NCBI GenBank assembly: GCA_963759805.1
Contig: CAVXAT010000001.1
Span: 128,001 to 192,000 of the forward strand
DNA length: 64,000 bases
Direction of reading: 5' to 3'
DNA from: an uncultured bacterium
GTDB lineage: Bacteria; Babelota; Babeliae; Babelales; RVW-14
Shown: in pieces, positions 29,880 to 31,639 of the stretch
How the letters are laid out: every line of letters begins with the position of its first letter
Numbering within the stretch: the first letter of the stretch is position 1
Notes under the pieces: generated by a model
What the model was told of the DNA's origin: nothing
What the model saw: the letters and a program-made list of their open reading frames with translations, nothing else
The model's database searches: none
Made by a program: the position numbers and the translations under genes

Positions 29880-31370
29880 ATGTTGCAAATTTTTCTTATT
29901 TTTGCTCTATTACTTCCAATAATAGTTGGGGCGCAGCAGGAAGCACCCAAGCAATTGACCACAGAAAAATTAACTCCAGAAAATTTTACCCCAAAACAAG
30001 TAACCCCCAAAAAATTAACTTCCCAGAAACTAACTATGGACGATGCCGTGCAGCGTGCCCTTACGCACAGGCCGGATCTTGAGGCCTTGCGTTATGCCAC
30101 ACAGGCCTTTGAATCTGCGGCTAAATCCGAAAGAGCCTTTTACTTCCCAACCATTGGGTTGAGAAGCGATATCTATCAGCATAATGGCGAAAAAGAACCG
30201 GACAGCTACACCGAAATAACTGTGAATCAGCAAATATACTCATTTGCAGGCCCACTCCAAAAATATCAGCGAGCAAAAAATATTGCGCAGGTTTCTGAGC
30301 TTGACAGAATCATAGAGACGAACAAAACACGGCAGGCAACGGAAAAAACATTTTTGAGTGCATGGCTAGCGCAGGAAAAAGAGAAGAGCATTGCAGTGCT
30401 GAATAAATCTGCCCAAACAACATTTCAGAGGGAGAAGCAGAAAAATAAACTAGAAAAATTGGATAAAGATGTGTGGCTTAAAAATGTTTCTGATTACGCC
30501 ACATCCATGGCAAAAGTTGATCAGTATGAAGAAGAAGTGATTATTGTTTACAAAAAACTGGAATTTCTCATGGGGGAATCACTTGCTTTACTCTCCACAT
30601 GCAGCAGCGATGGTAAACAATTATGCGATGGTAGCAAACTATGTCCACCTAAAGCCAAGCTTGTATGGCATTACAAAAAGAATTACGAGCCTGAGCCGCT
30701 TGATACATACTTTCATTATGCGCTTATTTCTAGGCCAGAGGTGCCTAAGGGATTAAAAAAGATGGCTATTGAAAAATGGAATATCAGGCTTGCGCAAGGA
30801 ACACGACTTCCAGAGATAAGCGCAAGCGCTCAAGCCGGTTGTGAAACAAATCCCAATGATAAAGAAAATACAGTTATTCCATCTACCGATCTGGTAATAG
30901 CACCTCCGTCCGCATCGGCAATTAGGCCATTTTGGGAGCTACGCGTGTCGCTGGAGTGGTCGATCTTTGATGGTCTTGTAACCCAATACAGGGAGCAACA
31001 GGCAGAGGCCGATAAAGTCAAAGAGATGCTCCAGCATGAGCAAGATATTTTGAACATCAAAGACGAGGTTCATGAAAAGTACCATACACTAGTAAAAATT
31101 CTTAAAAAGTCTCGCGAACAAAAGTTAAAATATATTCATGGCCGCAACCACTACAACCTCAAAAAACAGGAGCTTGAGCTTGGCAGAATTTCGCAGGTTG
31201 ATTTTGATGCAGAGAAAACTGCCTGGCAAGATGTTCAATTTGATTGGATCTCGTACAATGTTGAAATAGCCTCGGCCGAATGCGATCTTATGTATGCATG
31301 TGGGTATCCGGAACTTTCTCAAACCAGGTCTCCAGGGCCCAAGAAGAGAGATCCTGAATCAAGTTCATAA
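29880..31370 (+). CDS. TolC family outer membrane protein
   Basis: Signal peptide, LTMDDAVQRAL..RPDL, FPTI, RPEV, LPEIS, WSIFDG; last codons derive from a REP and the stop codon from the TIR element. Confidence 0.85.
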   Translation: MLQIFLIFALLLPIIVGAQQEAPKQLTTEKLTPENFTPKQVTPKKLTSQKLTMDDAVQRALTHRPDLEALRYATQAFESAAKSERAFYFPTIGLRSDIYQHNGEKEPDSYTEITVNQQIYSFAGPLQKYQRAKNIAQVSELDRIIETNKTRQATEKTFLSAWLAQEKEKSIAVLNKSAQTTFQREKQKNKLEKLDKDVWLKNVSDYATSMAKVDQYEEEVIIVYKKLEFLMGESLALLSTCSSDGKQLCDGSKLCPPKAKLVWHYKKNYEPEPLDTYFHYALISRPEVPKGLKKMAIEKWNIRLAQGTRLPEISASAQAGCETNPNDKENTVIPSTDLVIAPPSASAIRPFWELRVSLEWSIFDGLVTQYREQQAEADKVKEMLQHEQDILNIKDEVHEKYHTLVKILKKSREQKLKYIHGRNHYNLKKQELELGRISQVDFDAEKTAWQDVQFDWISYNVEIASAECDLMYACGYPELSQTRSPGPKKRDPESSS

Positions 31371-31639
31371 CTGTCCGAAGTGTTAAACGTAGCTTTGAAT
31401 CGTCGGATGCGTATGGTTTTCATCGCGCTCGTCCTGAGTGATTTGCAAGCAACTTGTTGCTTAGCAAATCGTATCGAAGGATAGAGCGCAACGGCGGATA
31501 GAATAAGTTTTTAGGGCGCACCCTTCGATACGCCTCGCAAGGCTCGGCACTCAGGGCGAGCGCCCTTGAGTGAGCGCAACAAGCGTTCAGATGGCTTTTA
31601 AAACACTTCGGACAGTTATGAATCAAGTTCAGGATGACA
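31350..31639. mobile_element. 251-bp non-autonomous TIR element (31368..31618) inserted into REP family A with target duplication
   Basis: gatcc-TGAATCAAGTTCA-[taactgtccgaagtgtt ... aacacttcggacagtta]-TGAATCAAGTTCA-ggatgaca; perfect 17-bp TIRs. Confidence 0.88.
31425..31566. repeat. Inverted doublet of a second palindromic family (C) inside the TIR element
   Basis: gcgctcgtcctgagtg...cgtatcgaagg versus ccttcgatacg...cactcagggcgagcgc; each unit has its own inner hairpin. Confidence 0.8.

Follow-up and report, generated by a model that had tools for sequence, protein, structure and literature searches.

An IS4-family miniature element at the centre of REP hairpins in a Babelales genome, with REPs as target and as cargo

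The stretch of 64,000 bp analysed here (the window) belongs to contig C1 of a 1.5 Mb assembly that consists of 21 contigs and is 88.7% complete. At the 3' end of a TolC-like efflux gene, a REP (family A) is split by a miniature element with terminal inverted repeats (TIRs), hereafter the MITE, the interior of which carries two REP units of another family (family B). The features of this locus are the following:

29880-31370, plus strand: TolC-like outer-membrane efflux gene; the frame enters the REP and stops in the left end of the MITE
31350-31356, plus strand: left arm of the interrupted family-A REP, which is of the CGTC/TGTC-tagged type (tag on the minus strand)
31357-31365, plus strand: left 9-bp target-site duplication (REP loop and two stem pairs), 9/9 match
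31366-31620, plus strand: non-autonomous IS4-family MITE with CA...TG ends, 255 bp, four copies in the genome; ends shared with the autonomous elements L051 and L137
31366-31384, plus strand: left TIR, 19 bp
31426-31482, plus strand: family-B REP unit 1 of the cargo
31517-31562, minus strand: family-B REP unit 2, inverted relative to unit 1 (REPIN-like doublet)
31571-31589, plus strand: small hairpin matching a terminator-like consensus (not significant)
31602-31620, minus strand: right TIR, 19 bp; over the terminal 26 bp, identity with the right end of the autonomous L137 is 96%
31621-31629, plus strand: right 9-bp target-site duplication, 9/9 match with the left one
31630-31639, plus strand: right arm of the interrupted family-A REP, including its TGTC tag (minus strand)
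31692-32438, minus strand: Fic-domain gene, convergent neighbour

The window sequence contains 13-nt direct repeats at 31355-31367 and 31619-31631, 264 positions apart, and inverted arms at 31351-31384 and 31602-31635. The earlier note, made from the sequence alone, had left a choice between duplications of 13, 9 and 7 bp on account of the palindromic target. The ends of the transposase-bearing relatives, CA(C/T)AACTGTCCGAAGT, settle this ambiguity: given the CA...TG ends of L051 and L137, the element spans 31366-31620 (255 bp) and the duplication is 9 bp, so that the 9-bp option with CATAAC ends stands and the 13-bp and 7-bp boundaries are ruled out. Deletion of the insert together with one duplicate yields a 26-nt REP with six exact matches elsewhere in the genome; the intact REP is thus restored as had been claimed, through the removal of 255 rather than 251 bp. 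The element is short, has TIRs in common with an autonomous IS, encodes no transposase, is multicopy and is flanked by a target duplication. Owing to two private substitutions at 31603 and 31618, the right TIR of the window copy mirrors the left one perfectly; the substitutions are absent from the three other copies, and conversion between the MITE ends is a possible explanation. The MITE folds strongly (z -8.6) because of the TIRs and the REP doublet, and a structured-RNA family was rejected (two chance Rfam matches only, E 1.2). The promoter and terminator scan was uninformative, with the hairpin at 31571-31589 as the sole terminator-like match in 31250-31800 compared with 0.4 expected.

The TAA stop codon of the TolC-like gene (31368-31370) is supplied by the left TIR. 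In the empty site, the TolC-like protein would be one residue longer and would stop in the REP, so that the effect on the host at this locus is slight, namely, the loss of one C-terminal residue. The empty state itself is deduced from paralogous intact REPs: the closest tolC relative (43% identity, five genomes searched) has no REP at the corresponding position, and two public runs (X1 and X2), both of which hold only small shares of the genome, contain no read of an empty allele covering the site, with X1 contributing one identical 151-bp piece of tolC that ends before the insertion point. Further along the window, at 32463-33236 on the minus strand, a eukaryote-type cyclin-domain protein (Pfam PF08613) is encoded beside the Fic gene and a TLC nucleotide (ATP/ADP) transporter; the presence of this transporter agrees with a placement in the Babeliales (Dependentiae/TM6).

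The four full-length copies in the genome (two on C1, one each on C4 and C8) all lie inside family-A REPs and differ by 1-5 of 255 bases. The duplicated loops vary with the site, TCAAG/TCAAG in two copies and ATAAA/ATAAA in the other two (in the C8 copy, at the outer end). With 50 intact REPs, such agreement between loop and site has a chance probability of 0.002 for all four copies, or 0.04 if no more than two events are independent. In the C8 copy, the perfect duplication is present only at a second, outer right end, which makes it 325 bp long; this copy looks like a composite that carries half a REP from the donor site. A full related copy, with 15 differences and two gaps over 31354-31639 and another right flank, was found in an unrelated public run.

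The target REP has a TGTC tag, an 8-bp stem opening with AT, a 5-nt loop and, mostly, a CCA tail, and forms head-to-head dimers. These features place it in the CGTC family, which the available part of PMC3733652 describes by a CGTC/TGTC tag, an 8-9-bp stem opening with AT, a 4-5-nt loop and a CCA-type tail; the window copy has a variant tail. Across the genome, all 13 TIR matches (at most two mismatches in 18) adjoin a half of a family-A REP, compared with a background of 0.68%. Together with the four full-length copies, this confirms the initial description of a miniature TIR element at the REP centre with a duplication; in this genome, none of the 13 matches sits at a random non-REP site. 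When 261 genomes from the order are searched, the exact TIR pattern has 36 matches, in 8 genomes, and the reversed control has none; of the 36, 32 adjoin a REP half, two lie at contig ends and two elsewhere, against a background of 0.9%, as scored by a flank classifier that was written after the flanks had been seen. No single fixed sequence is targeted, given that the REPs flanking the TIRs comprise several different stem-loop sequences with a common GTCA(T/C) tag. Of the two duplicated 9-mers, one has 63 and the other 195 occurrences in the genome, yet every element end is found at a REP. Only 7 of the 14 two-ended elements with both flanks visible show a perfect 9-bp duplication; those with unlike flanks may be recombinants or assembly chimeras. 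The 11 exact TIR matches in viral contigs, none of them beside a REP half, were taken as chance.

The same ends enclose a DDE transposase in two autonomous elements. In L051, from a relative in the same order (G053), TIRs of the MITE type surround an ORF of 388 aa (P0001) in a 1258-bp element, the only visible flank of which is a family-A REP half, the second flank being cut by the contig end. In L137, a metagenome contig, the transposase is 80% identical to P0001, the left and right inverted repeats are identical to each other and represent a variant of the MITE TIR, and the flanks are unlike (3/9); a full duplication is thus seen in neither of these two closest autonomous copies. P0001 matches the IS4 model NF033592 of NCBIfam with 168.5 bits (cut-off 115) and contains the DUF4372 and DDE_Tnp_1 domains. 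Its DDE residues, D121, D192 and E303 (spacers of 70 and 110), are invariant in the alignment (A1) and within D(60-110)D(100-150)E, and the Y(2)R(3)E(6)K motif is present as Y296-R299-E303-K310. The ends CA-(T/C)AACTG-T, the sizes of 1258 and 1255 bp and the 9-bp duplication all agree with the IS4Sa row in Table 1 of PMC2266710, as far as that source is available (ends CA------T, size 1150-1750 bp, repeat 8-10 bp). P0001 shows 24-31% matches to named IS4 elements; the single named member included in the tree has a long branch. The inference of a REP-specific, non-autonomous IS4-family element drawn in the earlier note is supported by these transposases within shared TIRs and by the position of the genomic TIRs at family-A halves. 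Its expectation that the transposase lies outside the window holds in that none is encoded within it; a cognate (P0001-clade) transposase was found nowhere else in this assembly of 21 contigs and 88.7% completeness. P0001 has matches in 3 of 61 genomes, with no close match in the TIR-bearing genomes G162, G034, G002, G017 and G165. The other IS elements of the window's genome were rejected as partners: the ends of its 14 DDE_Tnp_1 matches and of seven multicopy repeats that were inspected are unrelated to those of the MITE.

A wider survey covered 160 loci with relatives of P0001, 75 of which have a clear TIR pair (at least 16/18). In the main group, 50 loci have full flanks, and only the 20 of these that show a duplication (at most one mismatch) were scored. 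Among the 20, 14 lie at a hairpin axis (at least 7/10 symmetric pairs), compared with 0.57% of random positions; where named, these scored relatives are mostly Bacteroidota. None of three loci in a side group with TCCCA ends is located at a hairpin axis. The duplications of 20 more distant autonomous relatives are 8-11 bp long; like the 9 bp of the MITE copies, this agrees with the roughly one helical turn that characterizes the IS4 family. Hairpin-axis targeting may be common to the IS4 transposases of the DUF4372 type; P0001 and the hairpin-targeting relatives fall into a tree group of 28 rows with weak support (85/64), and a single origin of hairpin targeting is therefore not claimed. One tree row, L055, is an artefact (wrong strand, 102 aa) and was left out of the TIR and duplication counts; the locus itself (L055:1338-2632, G014:C1), from the same bacterial family, contains a distant (29%) IS4 element with the tagged half of another REP on both flanks, in inverted orientation. 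At another locus (L043:714-4413, G007:C9), three ordinary-looking ORFs lie between two degenerate TIRs that are 3.7 kb apart and have an 8/9 flank match, either as a composite or by coincidence.

The cargo of the MITE accounts for 8 of the 49 family-B REP units of the genome, counted over the four copies. REP doublets are multiplied by the MITE ends, fourfold in this genome, and G162 contains multicopy TIR elements with other cargo. Free family-B pairs in the window's genome bracket two GIY-YIG genes. The window also contains two empty family-A REP doublets (46215-46388 and 59850-60023), the long spacers and tails of which are conserved (82% over 174 nt); these doublets form a REPIN-like family of their own. 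A third, GC-rich repeat family is nested in family-A REPs (G000:C2:30150-30220, C2:214240-214290 and C8:54860-54930; G000 is the window's genome), so that nesting is three levels deep.

Another cargo is found in a second element of the window:

4764-5320, plus strand: older sister element of 557 bp, which splits a family-A REP; each of its TIRs differs from that of the MITE by one substitution
4934-5233, plus strand: 99-aa single-domain GIY-YIG gene (SsnA-like), inside the sister element

The left end of the sister element has TA in place of CA, and its 9-bp flanks match at 6/9 positions. The GIY-YIG gene is located between inverted family-A REPs (4834-4859 and 5253-5278), and the predicted protein has Y7/Y18/E65, in the SsnA-like catalytic spacing (Y6/Y17/E64); comparison with the PDB gave only weak UPF0213 matches. 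The published SRM motif has no match in the restored REP with up to three substitutions, and its two strict matches genome-wide are both outside this REP family. In G002, a member of the same genus, the TIRs enclose a cassette of family-B REPs and a GIY-YIG gene, 629 bp in length, with a perfect 9-bp duplication. The GIY-YIG genes of G002 and of the window are 32% identical and belong to different subfamilies. The possibility that the MITE is a deletion derivative of the G002 cassette was dismissed, being supported by the ends and one REP unit only. At a further locus (L049:1082-1973, G011:C4), tandem SsnA-like GIY-YIG genes among REP arrays are followed by a degenerate TIR and half a REP.

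The ends, the duplication, the copy number, the target bias, the ends shared with IS4 transposases and the amplified REP cargo, all directly observed, are most readily explained, with a probability of roughly 0.9, if the MITE derives from an IS4-family (IS4Sa-like) IS, is moved in trans by a transposase of the P0001 clade, inserts into REP loops with a 9-bp duplication and has an interior that is free to carry REPs. By analogy with the established biology of IS4, from which the cut-and-paste chemistry and the supply in trans are taken, a DDE transposase of the P0001 clade, provided by an element now lost or unassembled, would bind both TIRs, excise the 255-bp unit and insert it by a 9-bp staggered cut centred on the hairpin loop of a TGTC-tagged REP, so that the loop and two stem pairs would be duplicated. 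The REP would presumably be recognized by the transposase through its structure or its sequence. Movement of this kind would need the ends alone, leaving the interior free, and an inverted REP pair of another family could thus have been multiplied fourfold along with the ends. Given that the target REPs occur in doublets and around small GIY-YIG genes, the ends would come to lie beside or around these and could be used in new combinations, a possible route of cargo capture.

Several features of the TIR-bearing elements would also fit a unit that is a composite REP (BIME- or REPIN-like), copied by a GIY-YIG/Ssn nuclease or a RAYT, with the duplication produced by REP-REP recombination: several TIRs of this genome occur as single ends behind a full REP with a conserved tail, the GIY-YIG gene of the window is flanked by the same TIRs, and mobility has been proposed for the REP-gene-REP architecture in the available part of PMC11893778. 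This origin is nevertheless very improbable, considering that identical ends enclose IS4 transposases, that in relatives several unrelated REP sequences harbour the ends and that the loops covary with the site; moreover, SsnA cleaves the variable flank upstream of the hairpin rather than the loop, as stated in the same part of that source, which makes an Ssn-driven origin unlikely. Slightly less probable still is a single old insertion that was later copied passively with its host REP or doublet, the MITE having moved only once. Such a history would be compatible with the common 377-bp context of the C4 and C8 copies (95% similar) and with the same loop in the two C1 copies. However, when the C4 and C8 copies are compared, an alignment count gives 12 differences in 101 positions for the host REP doublets, and the inserts have 4 in 255; the greater divergence of the hosts implies separate insertions. 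In addition, both loops change together between the copy pairs, and the flanks of the two C1 copies differ just outside the REP core.

The role of the MITE in the spread of its cargo is a different matter. That the REP doublets and GIY-YIG cassettes entered empty MITEs by themselves, and that the MITE never moved the two nuclease cassettes, is a serious contender, somewhat short of even odds. Two free cassettes of the window's genome, which lack TIRs, show 77% identity to the G002 cassette, both TIR-bounded nuclease cassettes are single-copy (one of them with a perfect duplication), and the MITE and the G002 element have only the ends and one family-B unit in common, as expected from self-entry. 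Conversely, no family of empty mini-MITEs is seen, and folding of nine short two-ended elements gave structured interiors (z at most -3) for eight; in the sister element at 4764-5320, one REP-tail-TIR module is present at either side, in inverted orientation (92% identical), and the C8 composite suggests capture by end swapping. Movement of the nuclease cassettes by the MITE ends is suggested by two single-copy cases of different GIY-YIG subfamilies. The broader notion, that REPs serve a widespread hairpin-axis IS4 lineage as landing sites and as freight, with mini-elements spreading CGTC-type REPs and Ssn-like nucleases within and between genomes, is tentative and, as a whole, rather unlikely.

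The targeting of the REP axis by an IS4 element had one prior case; it is now also seen in a reduced-genome lineage, in the form of a MITE, and in 14 of the 20 distant relatives that were scored. The enzyme-target pairs from the DUF4372-type relatives make a natural set for studying the recognition of a hairpin or palindrome by a DDE transposase. The cargo ties together three layers of selfish DNA, namely, the REP, the REP nuclease and the IS4 ends, and provides a testable route for the spread of REP doublets and small GIY-YIG cassettes; the freight reading, if true, would give DDE-based mobility to cassettes without an encoded integrase. A search of titles and abstracts, with most subscription journals outside its coverage, found no published description of an arrangement of MITE, REP, IS4 family and GIY-YIG.

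An IS231-type element with passenger DNA is known as MIC231. According to the available part of PMC2266710, extra DNA is carried by IS4-family ends in the IS231 subgroup, as in the MITE, but the IS231 ends are CAT with repeats of 10-12 bp, compared with 9 bp here, and the passengers are resistance or metabolic genes rather than REP doublets and REP-flanked nuclease genes. The NTS/SRM-ssnA cassettes, as far as described in the available text of PMC11893778, resemble the sister element in the 99-aa single-domain GIY-YIG protein, the inverted hairpin repeats and the SsnA-like spacing; they differ in the SRM motif, which is unmatched in the REP of the MITE, and that text does not mention enclosure of the cassettes by IS ends. 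REPs are also the landing site of the IS110-family elements ISPpu9, ISPpu10, ISPa11 and ISRm19, which, unlike the MITE, use DEDD recombinases, produce repeats of 0-2 bp and lack terminal inverted repeats (PMC1525189, in the part available). The window's genome contains a 1218-bp multicopy element without terminal inverted repeats (G000:C1:2779-3995, that is, L277; C1:253220-254437; C2:1-1211) that encodes an IS110-family transposase (Pfam PF01548 and PF02371); it apparently lies in the third, GC-rich hairpin repeat family and would be the second repeat-targeting IS of this genome.

The closest parallel is ISRm22 of Sinorhizobium meliloti, an IS4-family element of the IS4Sa subgroup that is located at the REP symmetry axis, with all copies REP-associated and some of them without matching repeats, as in the elements described here (PMC1525189 and PMC2266710, as far as available). 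Unlike the MITE, ISRm22 is autonomous and belongs with another REP family in another phylum, and the available parts of these sources describe no MITE or cargo. In S. meliloti, locus L260 and locus L272 ('ISRm16 family'), which are 98.7% identical, both have 9-bp duplications at REP axes, and L260 has ends CA-NNN-CTGTCCG like those of the MITE. L260 is probably ISRm22, being the IS4 copy in a REP on pSymB; its transposase is about 24% identical to P0001 and does not group with it in the tree (long branch). Set against these systems, the MITE is a clean, young, REP-targeting IS4 element, the mechanism of which is known, whereas its cargo and the breadth of the targeting are new.
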